Virus record (IMG/VR): IMGVR_UViG_3300020037_006332 | Coordinates: 8,561-72,560 of that record | DNA: 64,000 nucleotides | Source of the DNA: a virus | Lineage: Duplodnaviria; Caudoviricetes | Reading direction: 5' to 3' (one strand) | In this document: piece after piece, positions 99 through 14,224 of the stretch | Layout of the letters: each line of letters opens with the position of its first letter | Position numbering within the stretch: the first letter of the stretch is position 1 | Program-made: the position numbers and the translations under genes | The notes under the pieces: generated by a model | What the model saw: only the letters and a program-made list of their open reading frames with translations | Databases searched by the model: none | What the model was told of the DNA's origin: nothing

Positions 99-2165
99 CT
101 ACTGAATTCTGGCGTAGTAGGCTTTGAATTGTTCGGTTAGGTGCCGGCGGTACTGTTCCACGGCGTCAATGAGGCCCTGTTTTTCCCAGAATGCGTAGCA
201 CTTCGGGAATGCCTTCTTTAGGCCCTCTAGCCCCTTGGTTACTCCCCAAAATCCATCTGGCTTTTTGTGCGACCACGGTTCGCCGCCGGCGGCCTCGAAA
301 ATGGCCCGGCCAAACTCGGCGAAACCTTCCCACGTGCTTTGAACGGCGTAAGCCGATAGGGGCACGTCGCTGTCTTTGACTTGCTTCCACCAGTCGCTGC
401 GTCCGCCGCTGTTGTTGGCAATGGTCCGGACGGCACTGGTTTGGATTTCCTCTAGGAATGCTTCTACCCATTCCTGGTTTTTGGATAGCTCGAATTGGCC
501 GGTCCCTCCGCAGTCCAGGGCGTGGGCAAATTCATGGGCATAAATTCCTTCATTGCCGGAGCCGGCGACGTTGTGGATCGTGTTGTCGCCAGCCGCGTAG
601 AATCCGCCCACGGTAAACCCGGCGGGCCTGCCGGTGCGTTTCTCGAATTCGGCTTGCAGGGACTCCCGGTTAGCGTAGGCTTTCATGCCGCCGGCCGTCC
701 CCTTGGCGATGCGTTCCTTAGCCTTGGCTGAAAACCCACGCATGGATTTTCGCATTCCGGTTTTGTATTGCTCCGGCTTGCGGCCGTAGTTCGGGGCGTA
801 CTCGCCAAGGGCTTCGTTCATTTCCTTTTCAAAGTATTCCCCTAGGATTCGCTGCGTTTCTAGTGATAGCTCGGCACGCTCACGGGGCTGGTTTATAAAG
901 TTAATTCCCCGGGCGTCGGCGGCGGCGTTGACTATCCTTTGTTGGATTGTGTTCAGGTTCTCGCCGGTATTGAATGCGGCGTGCAGCATGTCGCCGGTAA
1001 TGCCTAGCGGGGCTAATTTCTTCACCAGCCCGGGCGAGATATCGACTAGATGGAAAGCATACTTGGGGTCTAGTTTGTAGTCGAACCAATCCCGGCGGCT
1101 GACGGTATCGACTAGCTCGTCGGTACTGCTGTCGATGGCGTCGGCCAGCTTCTCCCCCACGGCGACGCGGCTGGTGCCGGTGCTTTCGTCGAAAAGCGAT
1201 TGCTGGCCCTTGGCGGCCTTGCGTTTGGGTGCGGCGGATTCTCCGGGCCCGTCCCCAAACTTTCCATCGGCCGCCCGGGGGTGCTTACTTTCGTCCCACG
1301 CATAGCGAAACTGGCGGGCGTAGCGGTAGACGGATTCGGCTCGGCGGAATCGCTGGGCGTATTGTTCCACGGCGTCCACCAGCCCATGCTTGTGCCAATA
1401 GGCGTAGCACTGCGGAAACTGAGTTTTGGCGGCCTCGGGGTCTTCAAATAAAAGCCGGCCAAACTCGGCGAAACCCTCCTCGGATCGCGTGCAGGCGTAG
1501 GCCGATAACGGCACTTCCCACGGCACTAGATCGTGCCACCAGTTATCGAAATTGCCGGAATTAAAGCCGGCTTCCATTGCGTCCAGGACGGTCTGGTTAA
1601 TTATCTCGGCTCGCCATGCGTCTTCCCACTCGTTCGTTTGGGAAAACTCATACCGCTTTCCGTTCCAGTCAATCGCGTGGGCAAACTCGTGGGCGTAGCT
1701 CCCGGCCTGACCTTCCGTGGCAATGGTTGCTATGTAGCCCTTACTGCGGTCAAAAAACCCCATCACGCCTGCGTTTTCGGGGAGCCCTGACGCTACCGAA
1801 ATTTCGGCGGAATCTTCGTAAGCCTCGAATCCATTGGGGCACGAATTGCTAATCCGCTCGATGGCCTTGCGGCTGAATCGGTCCAGCACGCTGGCCATCT
1901 GCTGGCGGTACGCCTTGACGTTATCCCGGGATAAAAACGCCTTGCTTTCTTGCCCCGGGAAAGTCTTTAGCTTGTGGGATTGCCGTAGCCGTTCCTCGAT
2001 GCTCTGGCGGTGGTCGGTTGGTTCAGGGGCCGATGGTTCGGCTCCGCCGCCCTCGCCAAACTTCCCGTCTTCGGCCCTCGGGTGCTTACTTTCGTCCCAC
2101 TGGGCGGCGTAGCGGTCCAGGTAGGTGAATTCGGCGAATGCCAGCCGGTAGGCTAGGTCGTTCAT
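99..2165 (-). CDS. Putative head-associated protein with two WDESKHPR tags and two anthrax-lethal-factor-like (zincin) metallopeptidase domains
   Basis: Start moved to MNDLAY (AAGGA RBS). Two HEFAH...LSAYA...EGFAE...FPxCYAxW units and two WDESKHPRAxDGKFG motifs. Confidence 0.8.
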   Translation of the reverse strand: MNDLAYRLAFAEFTYLDRYAAQWDESKHPRAEDGKFGEGGGAEPSAPEPTDHRQSIEERLRQSHKLKTFPGQESKAFLSRDNVKAYRQQMASVLDRFSRKAIERISNSCPNGFEAYEDSAEISVASGLPENAGVMGFFDRSKGYIATIATEGQAGSYAHEFAHAIDWNGKRYEFSQTNEWEDAWRAEIINQTVLDAMEAGFNSGNFDNWWHDLVPWEVPLSAYACTRSEEGFAEFGRLLFEDPEAAKTQFPQCYAYWHKHGLVDAVEQYAQRFRRAESVYRYARQFRYAWDESKHPRAADGKFGDGPGESAAPKRKAAKGQQSLFDESTGTSRVAVGEKLADAIDSSTDELVDTVSRRDWFDYKLDPKYAFHLVDISPGLVKKLAPLGITGDMLHAAFNTGENLNTIQQRIVNAAADARGINFINQPRERAELSLETQRILGEYFEKEMNEALGEYAPNYGRKPEQYKTGMRKSMRGFSAKAKERIAKGTAGGMKAYANRESLQAEFEKRTGRPAGFTVGGFYAAGDNTIHNVAGSGNEGIYAHEFAHALDCGGTGQFELSKNQEWVEAFLEEIQTSAVRTIANNSGGRSDWWKQVKDSDVPLSAYAVQSTWEGFAEFGRAIFEAAGGEPWSHKKPDGFWGVTKGLEGLKKAFPKCYAFWEKQGLIDAVEQYRRHLTEQFKAYYARIQ

Positions 2166-2218: not shown

Positions 2219-2527
2219 CTAGCGGTTGGTAAACGTCTTGCCGCGTTTCTTGACTTTGCTGGGGGCTAATTCCTTGGCTGTGGCGGTGCTTTGGCGGATG
2301 ATCTTGCGGGTGAGCCGGTCCAGCCGCTCGGCTTCGGTTTCCGGGGCTCGGGGCGGATCGACGGCCCGATAGCGGAGCATGCAACCGGCCCACGGGAATT
2401 GCTGGTTGAATCGCACGGCGGGGCGGTTCAGGCGTTCCAGGTGCGAATCTCGAAGTTCGCGGGTCGGGTAGCTCTTGAACGTCCGCCAGCCGGCTTTTTC
2501 GTCGAAGATTTCAATGCTAAAGTTCAT
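2219..2527 (-). CDS. Hypothetical protein
   Basis: ORF from MNFSIEIF, overlapping the upstream gene's stop, basic C-terminus. Confidence 0.65.
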   Translation of the reverse strand: MNFSIEIFDEKAGWRTFKSYPTRELRDSHLERLNRPAVRFNQQFPWAGCMLRYRAVDPPRAPETEAERLDRLTRKIIRQSTATAKELAPSKVKKRGKTFTNR

Positions 2528-2777
2528 GCGGTTCCTCGCGTTCGGCGGCCAGTCCGCCAACTAGGTAATTTCGGATTTCCTCGATAAGCCGATGCCGGCT
2601 GCCGTCCGGTATGCCGGGGTGCCCGTGGTCGCATCGGTTGGAAATCGTGATCGAGCCCGGGAAATCCTGGTCGAACCTGATTGTTTCGCCGGCATCGGTG
2701 CGGTCAATTATCGCGTCCACGATTTCGCGGCAAAGCCGGTTGATCGTTTCGTCGGACTTGACGCCTTTACGGGCCAT
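2517..2777 (-). CDS. Hypothetical protein
   Basis: 86-aa ORF downstream of the promoter at 2884-2911. Confidence 0.65.
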   Translation of the reverse strand: MARKGVKSDETINRLCREIVDAIIDRTDAGETIRFDQDFPGSITISNRCDHGHPGIPDGSRHRLIEEIRNYLVGGLAAEREEPHEL

Positions 2778-2883: not shown

Positions 2884-2911
2884 ACTATAGCGAGCGGTTT
2901 TGGCTTGTCAA
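2884..2911 (-). promoter_or_regulatory. Sigma70-like promoter with CGCTCGC box
   Basis: TTGACA-16 nt-TATAGT; spacer ends in CGCTCGC. Confidence 0.75.
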
Positions 2912-5900
2912 GCGTACCGCCAGCGGGGCCGGTAGTAGCGTTCCACGCTGCCGCTGGCGGCGTTGCGGGCTTGGAGGTCTTTTAGGTGCGGGAAGTCTTT
3001 GAGGATTTCCTGGGGGATGGTGCCGCCCTGGGCGATGTGGTCCTTCATGGCGGCCACGTAGTCGCGGTTCGCCTGCTGGACGTCGTAGTCCCCTTTCTTG
3101 CCGGCTTTCTGTAGGTGGTGCCACTGGGCCCTGGTGAATCCCCATTCGTTGGCTGGTCGGCCGCCGCCGGACTTGGGTGGCTCGGGTTTCTTGGGCGGTT
3201 CCGGGTCTTTGGGCTCGGGGGTCTTCGCTTCGGGCTGGTTGGGCTTGCTTTCTTCGGCGGCCTGCTGGGCTTTGCCGATTAGGCCATGCTTCTGCCAAAA
3301 CGCATAGCACTTGGGGAATTTCTCTTTGGCTAGTTCCTCGTTCTCGAAAATAAAACGGGCATATTCCGCAAACCCCTCTGAGGCGTTTTTGTTGGCGTAT
3401 TCGGAAAGTCGGTAGCCATGCTGGCGGCTATATTTGATTTCATCCTGGTACGCGACTTGCCACTGCGTATCGCTGGATAATTTCGATTCGCTGTAGCGGA
3501 ATTTAGCATCTAGGATATGGGCTTTCCGCTCCCACGCATCGCGGTCAAAGTCGATGGCGTGGCCCAGCTCGTGGGCCAGAATCGACGCGGGCCCCATGTC
3601 TCCCATGTCCTTTTCGAGTGGCACCACTAGCTCGCCCTTTTGGCCTGCGAAATAGCCGCCAATGCGGCTGTTTTGCGTGTTGATACGCTGGCGGCTGGCG
3701 GCTGCGTAGGCCCGGGTCACTGACAGCGTATCGCTGTGGACTTCGATTTTTTGGACGGATTTGCTAATCCGCTCGGCGGATTTCGGGGAGAACGTATTGA
3801 GGACGGCCCGGACGGATGCGTTAAAGCCTTGCATTTGCTCCGGCTTGGCTTTGAAAGCCACCATTTTGCCGGACTGATTGGCCATTTTCTTGACGTCGCC
3901 GGGGTTAATTTTGGCGAATGCGGCGGCCACGGTTTTGCGGAATGGATTATCTGCCGGGTCTTCTTCTTCCGGTTCTGGTTCGGGCTCGGGTGCTTTGGGC
4001 GGCTCGGGCTTCTCGGGTGGGCCATCGAATAGCCCCTTCTGCCCCTTGCTGGGCTTTACCCGGACGTCTTCGGTAGTCGCTCCGCCGCCCTCGCCAAACT
4101 TCCCGTCGGCCGCTCGGGGGTGTTTACTTTCGTCCCATTCGTAGCGGGCCACGTCGCCCCGGCGGGCAAACGGCACGGCGTCCAGTTCCTCGGGGGTGGC
4201 GTCGTGCTCGCCCCAGTCTTCCCAGCCGCCGCCCTCGCCTTCCGGGGCCATCCCGGATTTATTGGCGTTGTACAAGATTTCGGCGGCTTGGCGGATTAGC
4301 TTGGGGTCGGTTTTGCTAGGCTTTTCGGGCGGGTTGCGGAGTAAATCCCAAAGCCGGCCGGCTAGGTCTTCATCGTCGGCATTGGCCCCGCCTTCGTAGC
4401 CCCGGCCGATGCCCAGCTCGGGAATGCTGCTGGCCAGCCGGCGGGCGATATCGTCCAGGCCGGGGACGCTGGCGGCGTCGCCGCCGGTGTTCTCCAGGTG
4501 GGCTAGTTGCTTTGGGGTTAGGCCGGTTTGCTTGCGGGCTTCGGCGATAGCGTCCAGGGTGGGCTGGTAGGCTTCGGCCTTTTCCTGGTAAACGTGGTCC
4601 AGGGTTTTGGCTAATTCTTCCGGGTCGACGCCCCAGTCTTCGGCCTCACGGGCGACTAGCTGGTTCGATAGGTCATCCACCTTTTGGCCACGCATCCGCT
4701 CACGCGGGGCCTGGGCGTTGGCGGGCTGCTGGTCGGTGTGTTTGACGTTGCCGATCTTGGCATTGTTGCGGGCTAGGTATTTCTTGGCCCGGGCGGTCAT
4801 TTCGTCCTGAATCGCCTTGCGGACGGTGGGGTCGCTGGCGATGCCCGGGGCGAGATAGACGTCGGCGTCAATCTTCCCAGTCTGGCCGGTGGCCCGTTTC
4901 ATTTCAAACGCCCCGGCGACCTTGCTGTCGTGGATCACGGTGACGGTGACCGTGCCGGTGGCCTTGTCGGTCTTAATGCCCACCTGAAGGGCCTTGCGGA
5001 CTTGGCTGGCGGTGCCGGCCGTCGGCTTCGGTTTCTCGGGGGCGGGCTGGGCCTGCCGGGTTTTAGATTCCGCGATAGCGGCCCTGGCTTCGGCCAGTAG
5101 GTCCTGCTTCCGCTTGATATCGGCGTCCAGCTTGCTGGGTTTCTTGCCGGCCTTTCCTTTGGGCTCGGGCTGCTTCTTGTTGATGCTGCTGACGTTCTGG
5201 CCGGTTAAATTCTTGGGTCCGGCGTGGATATGGCCGTTGTCGTCAATCAGCACGGGGGTGCCGCCGTCGCCCTCGTGGGCCCCGATGGTGACCCAGCGGG
5301 CGTAACGTAGGATTTTCCCGGGGCGGCGGTTGCGTTCGGTGTCTGCCTGACGCATCGAAGCCAGAGAAGCCCGGTTCTCGGCTAGGACATTTTCCAGGGC
5401 GGCAATCTGTTTCTTGAGCTGCTTCTGCTCTTTTGCGTTCAGGGTCGGGAGCATGGCCGCCCCACGCTCTAGGGCTTCCTCTAGCTGGCTGTTTTGCTTT
5501 TCAAGGTGGGCAATATCTTTGGCAAAGCCGGTTGGCTCGGCCTTCTCGGCCGGGGCAAAGTCAGCCCGGACGTCTTCCGGGAGTTCAATTCCGTCGTGCT
5601 TCGCGTCGCTGATAGCCCCGACGTGCTGGCGATAAGTCGGTGTGTCAATCTCGTGGCTGCCAATCATCTTATCGACGTCCAGGCTAGAGATATCCAGCCA
5701 CCCTTGCTTGCCTCCCACAAAGATTTGCAGGCCGTTGCCGTGGGCCCGGATATGGGCCGGATCGGCGAGCGGCGTGGCTCGCATTTGCGTGGTGTGGTAA
5801 ACAGTTTCGCCGGATTTGATTTTCTCGGCGATGGCCTTGGCCGTAGTCTCGGCCCACTGCTTTTTAGTCCACTTCGTAAGGTCCGGGCGGCTGCCGCCGC

Positions 5901-7794
5901 TGGAGCCCCCGCCGCTGCCAAACTTCCCATCGGCGTCACGTGGGTGCTTGTCTTCATCCCATAGGCCCCGCTGGTGGTCGCCGTAGCGGTCTACGTCGCC
6001 GCCCCGGGCGTTCCGGCTGGGTTCGGGGATGTTCGACGGGAATAGCGGGCTGGGGCTGCCGTCATCCGGGTCGTCGTCATCGCCGCCCCCGGGAAACCAC
6101 CCGTCCCCGTCTTCGGCTTCGGCTTCGCCGCCGGGGTTAATTTCGGGGGTGTCTTGGCCCACGGTTTCCTTGAGTTTGGCGAATGCCTTATGGGCGTCGC
6201 TGGAGTGGAATTCGCTTACCAGCTTGGCCCGAAGCTGGTTGGCGGTGGGGTTATTGCTGCCGCTATTGGGGCTCATGCCGGCGGCTTTGGTTAAATCTCC
6301 CTGGGGAGCCGTGGCGGCGTTGGGGTCGTTCGGGTCGCCGCCCTGGCCTTGCATGGCGGCCATTTGCTGCTGGCCGGCGGCCGTGGCCTGGGGGTTTTGC
6401 AGGGTGGGCTCGTCGGGTTCGGGGATGGCGGCCCCGATGGCGTCCAGGACGTCGGACTCTTTCAGGCGGGCCCCCATGTTCCAAGCCTTTTCCATGCCGG
6501 CCAGCTTGGCTTCGACGTCGGGTAGCTGGGTCTGAATCACAAACCGCATATCGACGTTATGGGCACTGGCGTCGTTATAGATTTTGAGCGGCTTGAGTAG
6601 GTCGCGGGTAATCGTTTCTTCCAGATTCGTGGCGTCAAATTTGACGATATCGAGCATGGTCTGCAAATGGAGGTCGGCCACGCCGGAGCCCATGCCGGTG
6701 GCTTCGGCTTCGCTGGTGAGCACTTGGCCCAAAATGTAGCGTTTGATGCGGTGGCCAAAGTAGCCGTTTAGCAGGTTCTGGAATGCCTCGATGCCGCCCG
6801 GGTTGGGCTCGATGTGCTCGACGCCGTAGGCCATGCTGGTATCCCCCAGCGGCTTAGGAAACAGGACGATGGTTTTGCGGCCGTTGCGGTTCTCGGCGGC
6901 GTTCTTGACGTCCTGGTAGGCGGAGTCGTTGCCTTCGGGGTAGTACCAGATTTCAAAGCCTAGGGCGGCTCGCTCCAGAAACTCCAGAAACAGCCCCAGC
7001 ATTTCCTGCTTCTGAAACCACTCCCAGTAAATCCGGGAGCGGATACCGACGCCGTGGATGCTGCCGGCGTCCAGCGGGGACTCGTAGGCGGCGTCTTCGA
7101 TCAGATATTTGTGGATGGCCACCATCGACCGCTCGTGGGGGGCTAAAAACGTGGCTAGCCCGGCCTCGGTCGGGACCACGACGCGGCCGTCGATCAGGTC
7201 GTGGGGCTTGAATTGGGAGCCCACGCGGATGCCCACTTCGTCGCGGGGGTGTTCGTCGCTGCCGTCATCCTGCCGGAAAACCAGCTTGTCGCCGTTAATG
7301 GGGAGCCAATCGTCGACGATGATATCGCGGCCGTTGGGGGTAATTTTCCAGCCGAAACGGTGCTGGATGGCGTAACGGCCGTACCAAATAGCCTCGGACA
7401 GCGTGTAGCGGTACTTGGTAAAATTGCGAGTGGCCCGGAGGATGTTAGTCATCCGCTCTTGCAGGGCCTTGTGGTGGGGCAGGTCGGGCCCGTCGACTTC
7501 GATATGCCAGTCCAGCAGGGCTACGGATCGCATCCGCTGCTCCAGGCACTCCATCACGCCGATGTCGTTCCTCATGTAGCGGGCGTTATCAAGCGAATGC
7601 TTGAGGGCCTCGTCCGGGCTGCGGAACGTCTTGGCGATGGTCGAAACGATGCCCTGGAACGTGTGGACCGTCGGCATGACCGGGCGGCCCATATTGGGCG
7701 GGGCGGCCTTAAACTTCCGGGCGGGATCGCGGCGGTTGGCGTTGTCGAATTCGTTGCCCTTAGTGGGCCCGCTGCCGGGAGTTTGCTGGATCAT
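2908..7794 (-). CDS. Phage portal protein (DUF935/Mu gp29-like) fused to a roughly 1100-aa extension with WDE[SD]KHPR tags and a C-terminal zincin domain
   Basis: Start at MIQQTP (AAGGA RBS). DUF935-type segment KRYILGQVLTSEAEATGMGSGVADLH. Extension contains HELGHAID...LSEYA...EGFAE. Confidence 0.85.
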   Translation of the reverse strand: MIQQTPGSGPTKGNEFDNANRRDPARKFKAAPPNMGRPVMPTVHTFQGIVSTIAKTFRSPDEALKHSLDNARYMRNDIGVMECLEQRMRSVALLDWHIEVDGPDLPHHKALQERMTNILRATRNFTKYRYTLSEAIWYGRYAIQHRFGWKITPNGRDIIVDDWLPINGDKLVFRQDDGSDEHPRDEVGIRVGSQFKPHDLIDGRVVVPTEAGLATFLAPHERSMVAIHKYLIEDAAYESPLDAGSIHGVGIRSRIYWEWFQKQEMLGLFLEFLERAALGFEIWYYPEGNDSAYQDVKNAAENRNGRKTIVLFPKPLGDTSMAYGVEHIEPNPGGIEAFQNLLNGYFGHRIKRYILGQVLTSEAEATGMGSGVADLHLQTMLDIVKFDATNLEETITRDLLKPLKIYNDASAHNVDMRFVIQTQLPDVEAKLAGMEKAWNMGARLKESDVLDAIGAAIPEPDEPTLQNPQATAAGQQQMAAMQGQGGDPNDPNAATAPQGDLTKAAGMSPNSGSNNPTANQLRAKLVSEFHSSDAHKAFAKLKETVGQDTPEINPGGEAEAEDGDGWFPGGGDDDDPDDGSPSPLFPSNIPEPSRNARGGDVDRYGDHQRGLWDEDKHPRDADGKFGSGGGSSGGSRPDLTKWTKKQWAETTAKAIAEKIKSGETVYHTTQMRATPLADPAHIRAHGNGLQIFVGGKQGWLDISSLDVDKMIGSHEIDTPTYRQHVGAISDAKHDGIELPEDVRADFAPAEKAEPTGFAKDIAHLEKQNSQLEEALERGAAMLPTLNAKEQKQLKKQIAALENVLAENRASLASMRQADTERNRRPGKILRYARWVTIGAHEGDGGTPVLIDDNGHIHAGPKNLTGQNVSSINKKQPEPKGKAGKKPSKLDADIKRKQDLLAEARAAIAESKTRQAQPAPEKPKPTAGTASQVRKALQVGIKTDKATGTVTVTVIHDSKVAGAFEMKRATGQTGKIDADVYLAPGIASDPTVRKAIQDEMTARAKKYLARNNAKIGNVKHTDQQPANAQAPRERMRGQKVDDLSNQLVAREAEDWGVDPEELAKTLDHVYQEKAEAYQPTLDAIAEARKQTGLTPKQLAHLENTGGDAASVPGLDDIARRLASSIPELGIGRGYEGGANADDEDLAGRLWDLLRNPPEKPSKTDPKLIRQAAEILYNANKSGMAPEGEGGGWEDWGEHDATPEELDAVPFARRGDVARYEWDESKHPRAADGKFGEGGGATTEDVRVKPSKGQKGLFDGPPEKPEPPKAPEPEPEPEEEDPADNPFRKTVAAAFAKINPGDVKKMANQSGKMVAFKAKPEQMQGFNASVRAVLNTFSPKSAERISKSVQKIEVHSDTLSVTRAYAAASRQRINTQNSRIGGYFAGQKGELVVPLEKDMGDMGPASILAHELGHAIDFDRDAWERKAHILDAKFRYSESKLSSDTQWQVAYQDEIKYSRQHGYRLSEYANKNASEGFAEYARFIFENEELAKEKFPKCYAFWQKHGLIGKAQQAAEESKPNQPEAKTPEPKDPEPPKKPEPPKSGGGRPANEWGFTRAQWHHLQKAGKKGDYDVQQANRDYVAAMKDHIAQGGTIPQEILKDFPHLKDLQARNAASGSVERYYRPRWRYA

Positions 7795-7833
7795 ATTCGC
7801 ATCCTTGCGGTGGGCTGCTAAAATCGGGCCATC

Positions 7834-8133
7834 ATGGCACGGAATGCCCACCAATGTCTGGCGTGTCTGCGGCTCTTAGATGAGACAGCAATTTCGCTGA
7901 CTGGTGGGGCACGCAAGCATATCTGTTTTGCGTGTTGGAAAACGCTCCCGAAGTTTAGGCGGATACAGTTGCAGTTGTTTTGCCGAACGGTGCCAGACGG
8001 GGGCGTCGGCATCCGGGAATTCCTGCTCCGGCTTGTGGAAGCGATGGAGCGGGCGGCGGAATACGACGAAACCGATGAGCCCGATGACGATATCGAGCCC
8101 GGCGGCCCCGGCTGGAGCCCTCAGTGTAACTAA
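7834..8133 (+). CDS. Small CxxC...CxxC zinc-binding protein, on the opposite strand
   Basis: CLAC and CFAC motifs; TTCGCA-17-TAAAAT upstream; stop overlaps the convergent HNH stop (CTAA). Confidence 0.55.
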   Translation: MARNAHQCLACLRLLDETAISLTGGARKHICFACWKTLPKFRRIQLQLFCRTVPDGGVGIREFLLRLVEAMERAAEYDETDEPDDDIEPGGPGWSPQCN

Positions 8134-8612
8134 ATCGAGTGCTTTCGTCTTCGCTGGTTCGCGTTCTGCTCGGATCGTGTAGCCCATCGGCAGTTTTCTG
8201 GCGTGTAGTCGCCGTCGTTGTCTATCCGGTCGATGCTGTGCCGGGGGCTGGGCTTGCGGCCCATGTCGGCCAAGAAATTGGCGTATCCATCGACGCCTAG
8301 CCAGCGGTCACAAACGCGGATTCCACGGCCACCCCAGTGCCTAAATCCCTTTAACTTGGGATTAGTGGTTCTCTGGACCATGCCATTCCAGCTCTGGTAT
8401 TCCGTTGCGACTTTGCCGTGCGGTGCATCCCCGTGGCGAGTGTTTGGCGGGCGTTCCGCTCTAATACAGCCGCAACTTTTTGTCATTCCACGCTGGACGT
8501 TAAATTTGTCGGCAATCCTGAGCGTTCCGCACGTGCATAGGAATGCCCATGTCCGTTGCTTTACTGGCCCAATTGCCAGCAGTCGGCCGTAGAGTTTTCC
8601 GCGTTCAATCAT
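8130..8612 (-). CDS. HNH homing endonuclease
   Basis: GRL...CTCG...[36 protein letters not shown]. Confidence 0.9.
   Translation of the reverse strand: MIERGKLYGRLLAIGPVKQRTWAFLCTCGTLRIADKFNVQRGMTKSCGCIRAERPPNTRHGDAPHGKVATEYQSWNGMVQRTTNPKLKGFRHWGGRGIRVCDRWLGVDGYANFLADMGRKPSPRHSIDRIDNDGDYTPENCRWATRSEQNANQRRRKHSI
8179..8283. repeat. 105-bp exact repeat, copy 1 (copy 2 at 56081-56185)
   Basis: Base-by-base identity across the HNH catalytic core. Confidence 0.9.
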
Positions 8613-9760
8613 TGGTTTGGCAAGATTGAGCGATATTGACGGGCGGAGCGGCCCACGCCTTGCAGCATGGAACGGCCCACAAACTTGCCCGGCCCGGCGG
8701 CCCGGCGGGGGACGTAGGTGATCGACGCGACTTTCTTGCCGGGGAAGGATTGGCCCTGCTGGTACACCCGCTGCACGACGTCGACCACGCTGGCGGCGGA
8801 GAGGGAATAATCGTACTGGTGGCCGTAGACCGTCCCGCGAATGCGAAGATTGTCCCAAATGGCCTTACCCTTGCTGCTGGCGGCCTGGAGCCGCTTGAAG
8901 ATGCCCGGCGGGACGTTGTGGTAGTCGTACACGGGGCCCGGGCCGTGGCGGCGGTTACTGAGGGTCTTGCCTAGCTTGCCACGGGCTCGCCCCCGGCCCT
9001 TGTGGCCTCGGCCTTTGATGGAATCGGCGTAGACGGACGTGGCGAGAAATTGCACTCGGCAGGTGCGGGTATCTGGGTTGTAGCCGATGGCGTAGACGTT
9101 GCTGGAGCCCGTCACGATTTGCATCGGGATGTATTGATCGGACACAAACCGGCCTGTGGGCGGCTGTGGGCCCTGTGGCTGGCCTTGGGCTGGCGGCTGG
9201 GTGAATTGACTCCCGCCGGTTCCGGTGCGTGTGGGCTGGCTCGTGGGGCGGCTAGGCGGGGCTTTGGGCCGGCTGCTGCCGCCGGAGCCTCCCCGGGGCG
9301 GCTTCGTGCTGCCGCCGGTGCTGCTGGTGGGCGGGGTGACGTTGTAGCCCAGTGAATTCAGCAGGTCCATCGCTGATTTGAGGCTGGCCGGATTCACGTC
9401 CCGGCTCTTATCGGATTCGCGGCCGAATAAAAAACCGATGGCCTTGCCCACGGGGCCCAGTTGGCCCAGCACTTTGCTTAGGATGCCGCCGGTGGCTCCG
9501 CCCCGGGCATAGCGGTCGATATCGTTCAGAAATTGGCCGGCTAGGGTGCCGCCTAGGGCCTGCTTGCGGATTCCCTTCCAGCTCTTGGGTCGTGGTGAAT
9601 TGGTGAAGCGGGCCAGCTTTTGGGCCTCGCCGCCGAGTAGCTGGCGGGCTCCCTTGGTGTAAATCTGGCGGTTCCGCTGGGCCTGCGTGATCGCCTTATG
9701 GGCCTGTAGGCCAGCGTTGAGGGCGTTTCGCCATGCGTCGAACGTGGCCATCCTTGGCAC
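8609..9760 (-). CDS. KTSC-domain protein
   Basis: SSNVYAIGYNPDTRTCRVQF...VYDYHNVPPGIFKRLQAASSKGKAIW matches the KTSC pattern, with a basic insert. Confidence 0.7.
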   Translation of the reverse strand: MPRMATFDAWRNALNAGLQAHKAITQAQRNRQIYTKGARQLLGGEAQKLARFTNSPRPKSWKGIRKQALGGTLAGQFLNDIDRYARGGATGGILSKVLGQLGPVGKAIGFLFGRESDKSRDVNPASLKSAMDLLNSLGYNVTPPTSSTGGSTKPPRGGSGGSSRPKAPPSRPTSQPTRTGTGGSQFTQPPAQGQPQGPQPPTGRFVSDQYIPMQIVTGSSNVYAIGYNPDTRTCRVQFLATSVYADSIKGRGHKGRGRARGKLGKTLSNRRHGPGPVYDYHNVPPGIFKRLQAASSKGKAIWDNLRIRGTVYGHQYDYSLSAASVVDVVQRVYQQGQSFPGKKVASITYVPRRAAGPGKFVGRSMLQGVGRSARQYRSILPNQ

Positions 9761-11472: not shown

Positions 11473-11500
11473 AGTATAGCGAGCGAATGCGGCTGGTCAA
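11473..11500 (-). promoter_or_regulatory. Sigma70-like promoter with CGCTCGC box
   Basis: TTGACC-16-TATACT. Confidence 0.7.
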
Positions 11501-13878
11501 GCTCGGCGGGGGCCCTGGAATTGCACGCTCTCGCGGGGCTTCCAGGGGCGTTGGACGGGCTTCGGGGCGGAGCCGGTGCCCATCTTGTCGCTATAGATCG
11601 CGTAGCCCATCGCGTCCAGGGCGTGGTCGTTAAAGTCCACGGGACGGTTTTGGGGGTTCCGCTGGCGGCGAGCGGCGTCGCCGGTGCTGGCCCCGGTGGG
11701 CTCGGCCCAGTGATAGCCGCGAATCTCGGAAATCAGATTCTTGCACTTGCTGAGAATGTAGAGCCGGGGGCGGCCGTTGTCGCCCACCAGCATAAGGCTC
11801 CGCAGTTCCGAAATCCGGCTATTGACGGGGTACTGGCCGAAACCTTTATTAGCCCCGGTGCACTTGAGGCCCAGCCGGGTAAATTCGACCATTTGCTGGG
11901 GGTCGGCCGTGTCGCAATAGGTTGGCCCGTAGGCGGGGTGATCGTATTTCCAATCCCGCTGGTTAATTTTGGCCAAGTGGTAGGCGTTGGGCTTTTGGGT
12001 TTCGTAGTGTTCGTCGTAAACGTAGTAGGTGCCGTCTTTGTCACGGGCCACCCAAACCACGGCAAACGGCGAATTGTAGCCCCAGTCGATGCCCCGGATG
12101 TGGAGCCATCCACTGGGGATGCGGCCGGCGTCAAGCTGCTCGGCCAGCTTCCGCATGGGCTCGGGGAGGGTGGTGCTGGCGGGGTCCAGGACGTGGATGC
12201 CCCGGCGGAATTCCTTGAATACCTGTCCCCGGAACGTGGCGAAATGCCCGGTTTCGCGGGTCATCCGCATATCTTCGTCGGTGGCCTTCAGTCGGCTTTG
12301 TACATAGTCCTGGTCGATGTACTGATTGAGGCTGGTGTTTAGGTGGTAGAATTCCCAGCCGTCGGGGACGTCTTCGTATTTGTCGGGCCACTCGGGGGAC
12401 ACGATTTCGACGGGGGTAAAATCGGCCCAGCCCGGGCTACCGTAGTCGCGGCATCGCCACTGGACTTCCTCCACAATCTCGAACGGCACTTCCTCGTTAA
12501 ACCAGTAGCCGCCGATTGATCGGCCTTGCATATGCTGGCGGCCCTGGTTGTAGCTCTTGAATTCGATAACCCACCCGATTTTGCTGGGGTTCTTGGGGTG
12601 CTTCAGCAGCACGGCGGCGGGCCATGATCGCTGCTTATCGAACCACGAAATATGGGCAATCTTTTCGGGCGGGATAAACGTGGAGAGTTTTTCCTGCCAG
12701 CAAATGCTGCAAACCATGTCGAACGATTGCCCGATAATCCAGAATGGGCAGTGTTCTCGATAGGGCGGGGTATCGAGCACGTAGCGGGCCGTCTTGTAGG
12801 CGGCGGCCACGGTCTTGCCGCTGTTGTGGTGGAAAACCCCGGCCAGCTCGTAGTTGTGCCACCCGTGGACGGTGAAATCATAGAAGTCCTGGACGCCAAT
12901 CGGCTCGATCTTGACCACGTGGGCGGTATTGGCTATCGTTGCCTCCAATGGGTACGTGGAATCGCATAGACTGGCCGGTCGAGAAAATGCGTACTTGGTA
13001 CGAAGTGGACGGCCTTTCGTGTGCTGAAATTGGGGCCAAGCTCCAGCAGTCTGGGCGGACTGTGTGGAAAGTTTGCAAGCGGCATGGGTTTCGGATGCGT
13101 CCTGTAGGGCCGCCCCGTGGCGAGAAAAACCCGGCCTGGAAGGGTGGCCGCACGGTCGATAAGGCTGGTTATGTGCTAACGCTTTGCCCGTCGCATCCGC
13201 AAGCCAATTCGGGCGGCTATGTCCGGGAGCATCGGCTAATCGCCGAACGGCTTCTAGGGCGATATCTGCTCCCGTCGGAAGTGGTTCACCATGTAAACGA
13301 TGACCCTGCGGATAATCGGCCGGAAAACCTACTGGTGTATGCCACAAACGGCTTGCACTTGGCGGACACGCTGCAAGGCAAGTGCCCAAACTGGTCGGAC
13401 GATGGGCGGGTCCGGATCGCGGCCGGAGTTGCGAAACGTGCATCCAATCGCCGGAAGCGGTCAAAACCCGGTGGTGCCCAGTCGCCTTAAATGCCTGCCC
13501 GTTGCTCATGGTTACGCGATAGAGCATGTCCCGGCCCTTGCGGAATGGGGCGTTGGCTAGGGCCGGCACGGCTTGCTGGCCATCCCACGCGACCACGTGC
13601 CACGGCTCCCGGATTTGGTCCACGCGGCGGTGGTGATTCGCCACGGGGTCAAAAACAAGCGTATCGCCGGCCACGCATCCGTTGCCCCCTAGGCAAATGG
13701 CGAAGTTGGCCTTGCTGTTGACGAATGCGGTTTGTTCGTCAAAGTTCTCGGGGTTGTCCGGGCGGGGAGTGAACATTTCCAGCGGGGTAAGCCGCTGGTT
13801 ATATTCCCGGACTAGGCGGCCGTGGCCTGCCTTAATGAGGGCTTGAATCTGCTGGGGGCTGAATACTTTGGCTGGCAT
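11497..13878 (-). CDS. terL: Terminase large subunit, intein-containing
   Basis: Walker A GGNG/SGKT split by an intein; Walker B YWFNEE; nuclease motifs GIDWG, YCDTAD, DHALDA. Confidence 0.92.
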   Translation of the reverse strand: MPAKVFSPQQIQALIKAGHGRLVREYNQRLTPLEMFTPRPDNPENFDEQTAFVNSKANFAICLGGNGCVAGDTLVFDPVANHHRRVDQIREPWHVVAWDGQQAVPALANAPFRKGRDMLYRVTMSNGQAFKATGHHRVLTASGDWMHVSQLRPRSGPAHRPTSLGTCLAACPPSASRLWHTPVGFPADYPQGHRLHGEPLPTGADIALEAVRRLADAPGHSRPNWLADATGKALAHNQPYRPCGHPSRPGFSRHGAALQDASETHAACKLSTQSAQTAGAWPQFQHTKGRPLRTKYAFSRPASLCDSTYPLEATIANTAHVVKIEPIGVQDFYDFTVHGWHNYELAGVFHHNSGKTVAAAYKTARYVLDTPPYREHCPFWIIGQSFDMVCSICWQEKLSTFIPPEKIAHISWFDKQRSWPAAVLLKHPKNPSKIGWVIEFKSYNQGRQHMQGRSIGGYWFNEEVPFEIVEEVQWRCRDYGSPGWADFTPVEIVSPEWPDKYEDVPDGWEFYHLNTSLNQYIDQDYVQSRLKATDEDMRMTRETGHFATFRGQVFKEFRRGIHVLDPASTTLPEPMRKLAEQLDAGRIPSGWLHIRGIDWGYNSPFAVVWVARDKDGTYYVYDEHYETQKPNAYHLAKINQRDWKYDHPAYGPTYCDTADPQQMVEFTRLGLKCTGANKGFGQYPVNSRISELRSLMLVGDNGRPRLYILSKCKNLISEIRGYHWAEPTGASTGDAARRQRNPQNRPVDFNDHALDAMGYAIYSDKMGTGSAPKPVQRPWKPRESVQFQGPRRA
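12911..12939 (+). promoter_or_regulatory. Promoter for the antisense HNH gene inside the intein
   Basis: TTGACC-17-TATCGT, 8 nt before the ATG at 12948 (leaderless geometry). Confidence 0.55.
12948..13490 (+). CDS. HNH endonuclease (HNH_3-like, N-terminal HTH) nested antisense within the intein
   Basis: GEKNPAWKGG, YVREHRLIAERLLGRYLLPSEVVHHVNDDPADNRPENL. Confidence 0.9.
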   Translation: MGTWNRIDWPVEKMRTWYEVDGLSCAEIGAKLQQSGRTVWKVCKRHGFRMRPVGPPRGEKNPAWKGGRTVDKAGYVLTLCPSHPQANSGGYVREHRLIAERLLGRYLLPSEVVHHVNDDPADNRPENLLVYATNGLHLADTLQGKCPNWSDDGRVRIAAGVAKRASNRRKRSKPGGAQSP

Positions 13879-14224
13879 CCATGCCTCTGCCGAACGGGAT
13901 GTAAAGGGTGTAATAGCCGGCCTTACGGAGTGCGTCCCGCATGGCAATCGCGGCTGGCCCGTTGAAACTGTGCACCACAAACGTCCGCACGTCGGGCTTG
14001 TTCATTAGAATCCAGCGGACCACTTCACTGCCGCTATTTTCTTCGGCGGTGTCTTGATAGTGCTGGCCGCCTAGGTCGTGGTCCAGGTGTACCTCGAACC
14101 ATGTTTCCGGGCGGCGGAGCTGGTCAATACACTCGCGGGCCGTGTTGACGATGATGGCGTCGGGTTGCATCCGACGGAAAATCCGGCAGCGGGTGGGGTC
14201 ATCGTCTAGGAACAAAATGGCCAT
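13832..14224 (-). CDS. Cyclic-phosphate-processing receiver-like domain protein
   Basis: ILFLDDD...HLDHDLG...SGSEVVRWI...VHSFN pattern. Confidence 0.75.
   Translation of the reverse strand: MAILFLDDDPTRCRIFRRMQPDAIIVNTARECIDQLRRPETWFEVHLDHDLGGQHYQDTAEENSGSEVVRWILMNKPDVRTFVVHSFNGPAAIAMRDALRKAGYYTLYIPFGRGMDASQSIQPPADSSPH

Follow-up and report, generated by a model that had tools for sequence, protein, structure and literature searches.

Leader-tagged cargo modules behind a Mu-type portal and in a neighbouring free gene suggest a head-cargo polyprotein system in an uncultured tailed phage

We describe here a 64,000-nt stretch of DNA from an uncultured tailed phage (hereafter the window), which corresponds to bases 8561-72560 of the linear, 72,560-bp IMG/VR record IMGVR_UViG_3300020037_006332 (estimated completeness 86%), and in which a portal gene is continued by about 1,100 residues of fused cargo modules and a second, free gene encodes further cargo. 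Nearly all window genes are carried on the minus strand. The portal-cargo fusion is an open reading frame (ORF) that stays open without interruption over 1648 codons (2908..7854; P0001), within which the ATG at 7794 gives a 1628-residue product (P0004), the form present in public protein collections; this start is backed by the ortholog in a related assembly (L011), which aligns from residue 1. Positions on P0001 are counted from 7854, and subtracting 20 converts them to the numbering of the 1628-residue product. The Pfam family Portal_Mu (PF06074, formerly DUF935) matched residues 91-474 of P0001 with an E value of 4e-31 and 108.9 bits against a cut-off of 23.9, spanning profile positions 4-335 of 336, and PHROG agreed (phrog_113, portal, E 1.7e-28). 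The features of the fusion gene are listed below in the order of translation.

2908..7794, minus: portal-cargo fusion gene, 1628 residues (P0004)
6433..7584, minus: Mu-type portal domain, residues 91-474 of P0001
6025..6342, minus: low-complexity linker rich in Q, G, P and D, read from the translation; cargo-free orthologous portals end about here
5983..6000, minus: junction J1, GDVDRY, a likely point both of prohead-protease cleavage and of recombination; the homology to L011 stops at residue 606, and the same V-x-R-Y is found in the protease linker
5917..5961, minus: HPR leader tag A (WDEDKHPRDADGKFG), then GSGGGSSGG
5302..5916, minus: module 1, which combines a ~140-residue domain of unknown fold with a coiled coil and closes at junction J2 (KILRY); the L011 ortholog lacks it
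5215..5295, minus: WVTIG...PVLIDDNGHIHAGP leader
4141..5214, minus: module 2, mostly helical, ending in junction J3 (GDVARY, 4141-4158); aligned with residues 1093-1466 of the L011 ortholog
4093..4137, minus: HPR leader tag B (WDESKHPRAADGKFG)
3283..3849, minus: core of a zincin, a predicted gluzincin resembling anthrax lethal factor (LF), Pro-Pro endopeptidases (PPEP) and MtfA, with HELGH at 3559-3573 and then Tyr-x6-Glu
2911..2949, minus: last junction (SVERY) and a conserved 8-residue C-terminal tail, YRPRWRYA

A preliminary description, made from the sequence alone, had read this gene as a 1628-residue portal continuing in one frame and carrying a WVTIG element and a zincin, and all of these were borne out, the fusion by the uninterrupted ORF, the PF06074 match and an orthologous fusion in two independent assemblies. 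The gene joins a portal and three modules in one ORF encoded in the head module, as is the rule for polyvalent proteins, the described class to which portal-effector fusions belong and in which portals are fused to PBECR, 2H and NUDIX domains (Iyer et al., 2017, PMC5512222; also PMC9503650). The portal had also been proposed as an effector carrier, which agrees with the variable C-terminal cargo among orthologs, but the idea itself had already been published in the same two papers. Module 1 covers residues 647-851 and module 2 extends to residue 1238 (P0001 numbering). For the middle part of the cargo, residues 647-1239, no match was found in the ESM Atlas and no homolog among proteins of 906-2884 residues, while Pfam returned noise only, with weak coiled-coil matches in module 1, and no relatives of modules 1 and 2 were detected outside this clade. 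Behind tag B, about 80 disordered residues are followed by the zincin, a helical C-terminal part, SVERY and the 8-residue tail. The tail and the downstream DNA are common to L011, and the tail is kept despite different preceding modules (YRPRWRYA at window positions 2911-2934, minus; YRPRWKYT at L011:7448-7471, plus).

The free cargo gene, P0003, lies downstream of the fusion, with the following features.

99..2165, minus: P0003, 688 residues, comprising a leader, tag, zincin 1, junctions, tag, insert and zincin 2
2055-2099 and 1254-1298, minus: the two P0003 tags
1677-1691 and 522-536, minus: the two HEFAH motifs of P0003

Its start is most likely the ATG at 2165, rather than the GTG at 2393. 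From there, a 22-residue leader ending in LDRY precedes the first tag and zincin 1, a series VEQY...VYRY...FRY leads to the second tag, and the insert and zincin 2 follow, the protein ending in ...AYYARIQ. The three zincin copies, one portal-borne and two in P0003, are diverged paralogs with 25-31% identity, and three of the four window tags precede a zincin. A model of the portal-borne zincin had a mean predicted local distance difference test score (pLDDT) of 56 and a core of 62-84, and a Foldseek search with it returned anthrax lethal factor (1yqy, E 3e-5, probability 1.00) and also 6r5a and 3khi (Pro-Pro endopeptidases, MtfA). H204, E205, H208, Y262 and E269 were invariant across 8 sequences, giving HExxH followed by Tyr-x6-Glu, and against the Pfam Peptidase_M90 cut-off of 26.2 bits P0002 scored 26.2 (at the cut-off) and the portal copy 24.9 (below it). 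Judged by these residues and the model, the one recognisable enzyme of the cargo is a putative anthrax-LF/PPEP/MtfA-like gluzincin. No Pfam polyvalent-specific family, including the polyvalent MPTase, matched modules 1, 2 or the zincin at E<=5.

The tag, WDE[SD]KHPRxxDGKFG (hereafter the HPR tag), is present in four copies, two in the portal gene (5917-5961 and 4093-4137) and two at the P0003 sites given above, which agrees with the places named in the preliminary description, and a six-frame scan of the whole 72.5-kb record found no fifth. The copies lie at residues 612 and 1220 of the portal fusion and at residues 23 and 290 of P0003; that they are spread over two genes and similar even as DNA had been noticed in the preliminary description, and they indeed showed a mean column identity of 71% across ~96 nt, in which stretches of ~20 nt match exactly. 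A profile of the four copies matched 140 proteins at E<=1 in a word-indexed set of 5.8 billion proteins, and an exhaustive HMMER search of 1.84 billion representatives (50%-identity clusters) gave 1,675 clusters at E<=1e-3, of which 188 reached E<=1e-10, the most matched stretches per protein being 18 (in 7,334 residues) and 15 (in 5,313 residues). The consensus of 150 distinct copies was A-[AK]-E-[WF]-[DN]-E-S-K-H-P-R-A-[AE]-D-G-K-F-G-S-G-G-G. The search pattern fixed H, P, R and the first Gly and restricted Phe to F, L, W or Y, yet positions that it left free were conserved as well (E 95%, W/F 95%, D+5 74%, K+7 76%).

Tag carriers include the portal families PF06381, PF06074, PF04860 and PF05136, the MuF family PF04233 and the prohead proteases PF04586, PF10123 and PF09979, so that the association with the head module, for which the preliminary description had asked other phages to be searched, holds elsewhere across four portal families, MuF and prohead proteases. 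Since the cargo varies among orthologs and the tag is tied to head genes, neither of the outcomes which that description had named as fatal (reads with a stop or frameshift behind the portal domain, or a tag not associated with head-module genes in other phages) was encountered. The cargo of tagged proteins comprises ADP-ribosyltransferases (ARTs), zeta-toxin kinases, NUDIX, type IB topoisomerase (TopoIB), RelA/SpoT, LPD3, PBECR1 and InPase domains, among which ART-PolyVal (PF18760), LPD3 (PF18798), PBECR1 (PF18809) and InPase (PF18823) are polyvalent-specific families. Many tagged matches of 137-300 residues consist of the tag and one domain only. HExxH was present in only about a quarter of the tagged proteins listed; the zincin as a general tag reader was dropped, since most tagged proteins are without HExxH. 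A tblastn search with the 46-residue tag region gave 4 weak matches among phage records and no plasmid match in PLSDB, the latter being weak negative evidence. One cultured phage, Xanthomonas phage PhiXhv-5, has a tagged portal (PV764598.1, 2302-4398; tag QWEENKHPRADNGQFG). No PDB chain carries the tag, no match was found in the Pfam or NCBIfam models scanned, and full-text literature searches, including the texts of Iyer 2017 and Jamet 2017, found no description of it.

The placing of the tag is strongly polar. Of the 511 tags counted over 232 proteins, 99.2% have 60 or more residues (median 262) between them and the next tag or the end of the chain, and only 2.5% have fewer than 100 residues there. 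First tags fall within 100 residues of the N-terminus in 47% of cases, with a median position of 150, and in tagged portals the tag stands directly behind the portal domain. A domain-sized stretch nearly always comes after the tag, which indicates that the tag is the N-terminal leader of the module that follows. In the model of the portal-borne copy, the tag was predicted to be without regular structure (pLDDT 46-61), and the next ~80 residues were disordered.

The WVTIG element plays a comparable part. The preliminary description had called it a module; the motif is present, but it is a second type of recurrent module leader and not a domain. In the form WVTIG-x(n)-PV-x-ID-x-x-G-x-I-x-x-GP, it starts modules in 10 other polyvalent proteins and in four related loci (L005, L008, L011 and L013), and in each of these loci it is preceded by x-[RQ]-Y. 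The motif is also seen at the N-terminus of zeta-toxin-kinase proteins and within other polyvalent proteins. By our own reading of the sequences, the WVTIG and HPR leaders appear to have a common P-x3-4-D-x-G-[KH]-[FI]-x-x-G core.

Comparison with relatives showed how these cassettes are exchanged. Orthologous portals at 47-54% identity measure 538, 563 and 590 residues without cargo and 726, 1032 and 1068 residues with other cargo, the longest carrying a tag and a WITLN leader. L011 (JGI) and L012 (Logan) are independent assemblies of a closer relative, whose portal protein is 92% identical over the first 635 residues and has 1474 residues in total; because both carry the portal fusion, the fusion is not an assembly artefact of the present record. 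In L011, the same zincin (80% identity) and the WVTIG-led module (75% amino acid identity) are found in the opposite order and module 1 is missing, so that module 2, the middle module in the window, is the last one there. The blastn breakpoints between the window and L011 fall at residues 606, 1210-1218 and 1617 of the 1628-residue product, which are exactly GDVxRY junctions, and nine residues, RRGDVARY, are common to both flanking segments at a breakpoint. Moreover, L011 encodes separately, in two genes, the zincins that are joined in P0003. This comparison shows that the fusion is real, that a module works portal-borne or free, and that the repeated junction and tag DNA is the rearrangement site.

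These breakpoints, together with the ~20-nt exact runs common to the tags, would also fit repeats that are recombination linkers only, with boundary DNA conserved for cassette exchange and a functionless peptide. However, the copies differ synonymously: the invariant tag Arg is written by four codons (CGT, CGA, AGG and CGG) and Pro by three, and therefore selection acts on the peptide, which is moreover conserved across the 1,675 clusters, including the positions left free by the pattern. We regard a mere linker role as very improbable indeed. As side observations on the orthologs with other cargo, the portals at L009:7914-11012 (plus, 1032 residues) and L008:7899-10079 (plus, 726 residues) appear, from the sequences without a profile, to have a common InPase-like module after the portal. 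The end of the L009 portal resembles, on the same footing, the C-terminus of a type IB topoisomerase (...NTPQMARDNYIHPEV...), and this TopoIB-like part follows a degenerate tag (DFDESKVKRDDDGKF) with other residues in the place of HPR.

On the minus strand, the large terminase (TerL, 11497-13980), small genes including one for a KTSC protein, the portal fusion, two small ORFs and P0003 follow one another, and beyond P0003, in the record's 8.5 kb to the left of the window (L003), stand P0250 (525 residues), a 144-residue scaffold/cement-like protein, the major head protein and a head-tail adaptor. By this gene order, the finding falls within a classical head module, at the position separating the portal from the protease, and the context of a Mu-type portal is found in it: TerL nearby, with protease-scaffold, scaffold/cement-like and major head genes downstream. 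The protease in question is the following gene.

L003:6538-8115 (record bases 6538-8115, ~0.4-2 kb left of window base 1), minus: P0250, 525 residues

P0250 gave no Pfam, PHROG or NCBIfam match. Across the 66 homologs found, H79 and S138 are invariant and H32 is nearly so, and an AlphaFold model made with 40 sequences reached pLDDT >90 over residues 11-160. The top three of an exhaustive structure comparison with 48,161 chains were varicella-zoster virus protease (1vzv, Z 7.1), T4 gp21 (5jbl, Z 6.8) and human cytomegalovirus protease (8j3s, Z 5.1), a moderate fold match, as Z ~7 is a level common for best hits per tool; Foldseek alone on the protease model was not significant (best E 0.6). The rest of P0250 is of low complexity and then forms a coiled coil, the usual protease-scaffold layout. 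On the modelled fold, we identified P0250 as a predicted assemblin-fold prohead protease fused to a scaffold, and it looks like a member of an uncatalogued protease-scaffold family, mainly of Planctomycetota phages and prophages.

What connects P0250 with the cargo is the junction. A clade-specific V-x-R-Y-type junction, of the form [GS]-[DS]-V-x-R-Y, stands in front of every module (GDVDRY, KILRY and GDVARY at J1 to J3, and SVERY at the last junction), and the HPR tag begins 0-8 residues behind it in the window. In the P0250 family, V-x-R-Y lies in the disordered linker right after the protease fold, with R in 32 and Y in 36 of 40 sequences, and some members repeat the motif. In herpesvirus assemblin, too, the release site, (V/L)-x-A-S with the cut between Ala and Ser, is located in the linker just behind the protease fold. 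The RY dipeptide is 4-5x over-represented in both proteins (8 observed against 1.7 expected in P0250, 10 against 2.3 in the portal fusion), which was not seen in most other proteins of this phage. [RQK]-[YF] was found no more than 16 residues upstream of the leader in 16 of 16 cases in P0250-family loci (the window, L004-L008, L011 and L013) and in 77 of 473 tags from other lineages (Fisher p 1e-12, a value that overstates independence because the tested loci are interrelated). Judging from these motifs, the V-x-R-Y junction is probably a site cut by the phage's own head protease. An N-degron made by cleavage directly before Trp/Phe was considered and dropped; the cut site would lie 0-8 residues upstream of Trp, and acidic residues follow.

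In the wider set of tagged proteins, an acidic residue (Glu or Asp) directly precedes 54% of the copies, with a five-fold enrichment of [ASG]-x-E at that place. The prohead proteases of T4 and phiKZ type cut after Glu, and by analogy the acidic residue recalls such Glu-specific sites. The upstream site thus varies by lineage and the leader is constant, which fits a protease site followed by a retained leader. The same closeness of site and tag, 0-8 residues here and with the acidic residue in front elsewhere, could also mean that the tag is an exosite or primed-side recognition element for the processing protease, be it the prohead protease or the zincins, with directing cleavage at module boundaries as its sole role. 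A zincin follows three of the four tags here, and zincin processing has been proposed for polyvalent proteins, for which packaging and injection are predicted as well (Iyer, Burroughs, Anand, de Souza and Aravind, 2017, PMC5512222). However, there are junctions that no HPR tag follows, namely J2, which leads to WVTIG, and VERY at the C-terminus. A tag is likewise missing behind the conserved V-x-R-Y of the protease itself, the low share of HExxH among the listed tagged proteins speaks against the zincins, and the tag does not change among at least four protease families, unlike the upstream site, which differs by lineage. We therefore consider a sole exosite role improbable.

From the gene anatomy, the polarity and distribution of the leader, the protease fold, the common V-x-R-Y and the shuffling breakpoints, all of which are shown here, we infer cleavage, packaging, ejection and a binding partner of the leader, and propose a head-cargo polyprotein system, a reading that we hold to be somewhat more probable than its contrary. 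The phage would make two polyproteins, one on the C-terminus of the Mu-type portal and one free, encoded between the portal and the prohead protease, and each cassette would consist of a junction [GS]-[DS]-V-x-R-Y, 0-8 residues, a leader (HPR or WVTIG), a Gly-rich or disordered spacer and a domain. In solved structures of portals, the C-terminus points into the capsid. Twelve copies of the portal fusion would bring cargo into the prohead, with free tagged proteins entering alongside; P0250 would cut behind the Tyr of each V-x-R-Y and free leader-first modules; these would stay inside the head until they are delivered to the host together with the DNA; and the three LF/PPEP-like zincins would then cleave host targets or the cargo itself. 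The repeats of junction and tag would double as crossover points, reshuffling cassettes between the portal and free genes.

As to the leader itself, the preliminary description had likened the tag to the capsid-targeting sequence (CTS) of T4, that is, a targeting or docking signal which would bind scaffold, core or portal and load the cargo. Head modules do contain free proteins that share only an N-proximal tag (P0003; g8979 and P0019 in L011; post-portal genes of L006 and L007), and the proteins of 137-300 residues made of a tag and one domain need a way into the head, so that a docking or address function is possible, especially on free-standing tagged proteins. The T4 CTS, however, is ~10 residues long, forms the very N-terminus of the protein and is cut off at L/I-x-E. 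The HPR tag is internal or stands 20-60 residues from the N-terminus; it recurs in chains held covalently by a portal, MuF or protease, where an entry signal would be redundant; it is nearly constant where scaffolds, portals and capsid proteins are unrelated; and since the candidate site V-x-R-Y is N-terminal of it, it is predicted to be kept. The analogy to T4 is therefore not supported in the form proposed, and a CTS-like entry signal seems unlikely to us. What we consider likeliest for the HPR leader is a handle that the mature module keeps, by which it would be retained or positioned in the head or threaded out via the portal, rather than an entry signal that is removed; on the sequence features at hand, we ranked such a retained handle above both the entry signal and the protease exosite. 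The constancy of the tag where portals, capsid proteins and proteases are unrelated argues for a partner that they all share, or for a part in leaving through the portal channel.

Several points weigh against the proposed head-cargo system. Besides the moderate fold match of P0250, its failure in Foldseek alone and the interrelated loci behind the Fisher test, V-x-R-Y could be a binding motif, for instance for the capsid interior, and not a cut site. We found no experimental evidence of cleavage, packaging or ejection in tagged phages. To call modules 1 and 2 effectors is an assumption. Finally, no partner that can be named explains a tag that is near-constant across phages with unrelated portals and proteases. 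A bolder view, which we offer as a tentative possibility, is that the HPR leader, of which the WVTIG leader would be a variant with the same core, is a universal portable address or handle for tailed-phage head cargo, read by a feature that all HK97-lineage proheads have; the reader might, just as tentatively, be the assemblin-fold protease, the channel of the portal or the end of the packaged DNA. If this were true, any domain gaining a junction and a leader would become a head-packaged, injected effector, and the order of protease site, leader, spacer and domain would be the rule by which injected arsenals are assembled and reshuffled.

Regarding the neighbourhood, the large terminase (11497-13980, minus) has 827 residues, and its terminase domains start only at residue 387. 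Residues 148-386 gave a below-threshold match to Pfam Intein_splicing (E 7e-7, 29.6 bits against a cut-off of 35.8), and by sequence there may be an intein or another N-terminal insertion. The KTSC-domain protein (PF13619, E 3.7e-11) at 8609-9760 (minus), between terminase and portal, has the same slot in L011 and L012. In the 742-bp gap between the portal fusion and P0003 lie two small ORFs, 2219-2560 and 2517-2777 (both minus), and the 113-residue one is probably a real gene because it is homologous to a 103-residue gene at the same position in L011. When 50,697 phage records were searched by tblastn, the whole portal fusion gave one weak portal match only and P0002 gave zero matches, an outcome which indicates no close cultured relative. 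Relatives of P0250 in genome assemblies come mostly from Planctomycetota metagenome-assembled genomes, the best one (50% identity) from Pirellulales; such sequence similarity suggests Planctomycetota as the host.

Phages are thought to inject host-disarming enzymes within the first seconds of infection, and how such proteins are selected for the head has, to our knowledge, been worked out in only a few model phages, T4 and P1 among them. With a short leader that over a thousand protein clusters have in common, and that precedes ARTs, kinases, NUDIX, TopoIB and zincins, injected effectors could be searched for in metagenomes by a sequence rule, and a candidate tag would be at hand for loading chosen proteins into phage capsids; it is in this general rule, rather than in this locus alone, that the value of the finding lies. 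The locus adds a natural case of shuffling, with the same cassettes in another order in a relative whose portal is 92% identical, and the specific hypothesis that V-x-R-Y is cut by an uncatalogued assemblin-fold protease family. PhiXhv-5, with its tagged portal, is a cultured phage in which these ideas are testable.

Four known systems bear comparison with the one proposed here. The zincin resembles LF/PPEP (M34) and MtfA (M90) in its HExxH, followed by a Tyr and a Glu seven residues apart, and PPEP-1/2/3 and MtfA are among its matches; in contrast, it is only 12-16% identical to them, lacks the N-terminal and PA-binding domains of LF, and is phage-encoded, with an HPR leader in front and in three diverged copies. 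Polyvalent proteins share the multi-module chain in the portal-terminase module, the head anchor at one end, the zincin and the mosaic architecture. The differences are that a text search of Iyer 2017 found neither the leader motif nor the junction grammar, that the zincin here is LF/PPEP/MtfA-like, and that two of the three cargo modules are without a known domain. With the T4 CTS of IPI-III and Alt, cleaved by gp21, the HPR tag has in common that it would be a short near-N-terminal peptide beside a prohead-protease site on head-packaged, injected proteins, and that the protease is of the same fold class, T4 gp21 being the second-best structural match of P0250; unlike the CTS, the tag may be internal, can recur as many as 18 times in one protein, is located downstream of where the cut probably falls and is conserved well outside any single phage group. 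The herpesvirus assemblin-scaffold differs in that the site here is V-x-R-Y, that the substrates would include portal-borne and free cargo polyproteins, and that the structural match is only at Z 5-7 with no detectable sequence similarity to P0250. The likeness to it nevertheless extends over the whole predicted arrangement, namely an assemblin-fold serine protease with a C-terminal scaffold, a conserved site in the linker right after the fold, and related sites in the substrates.

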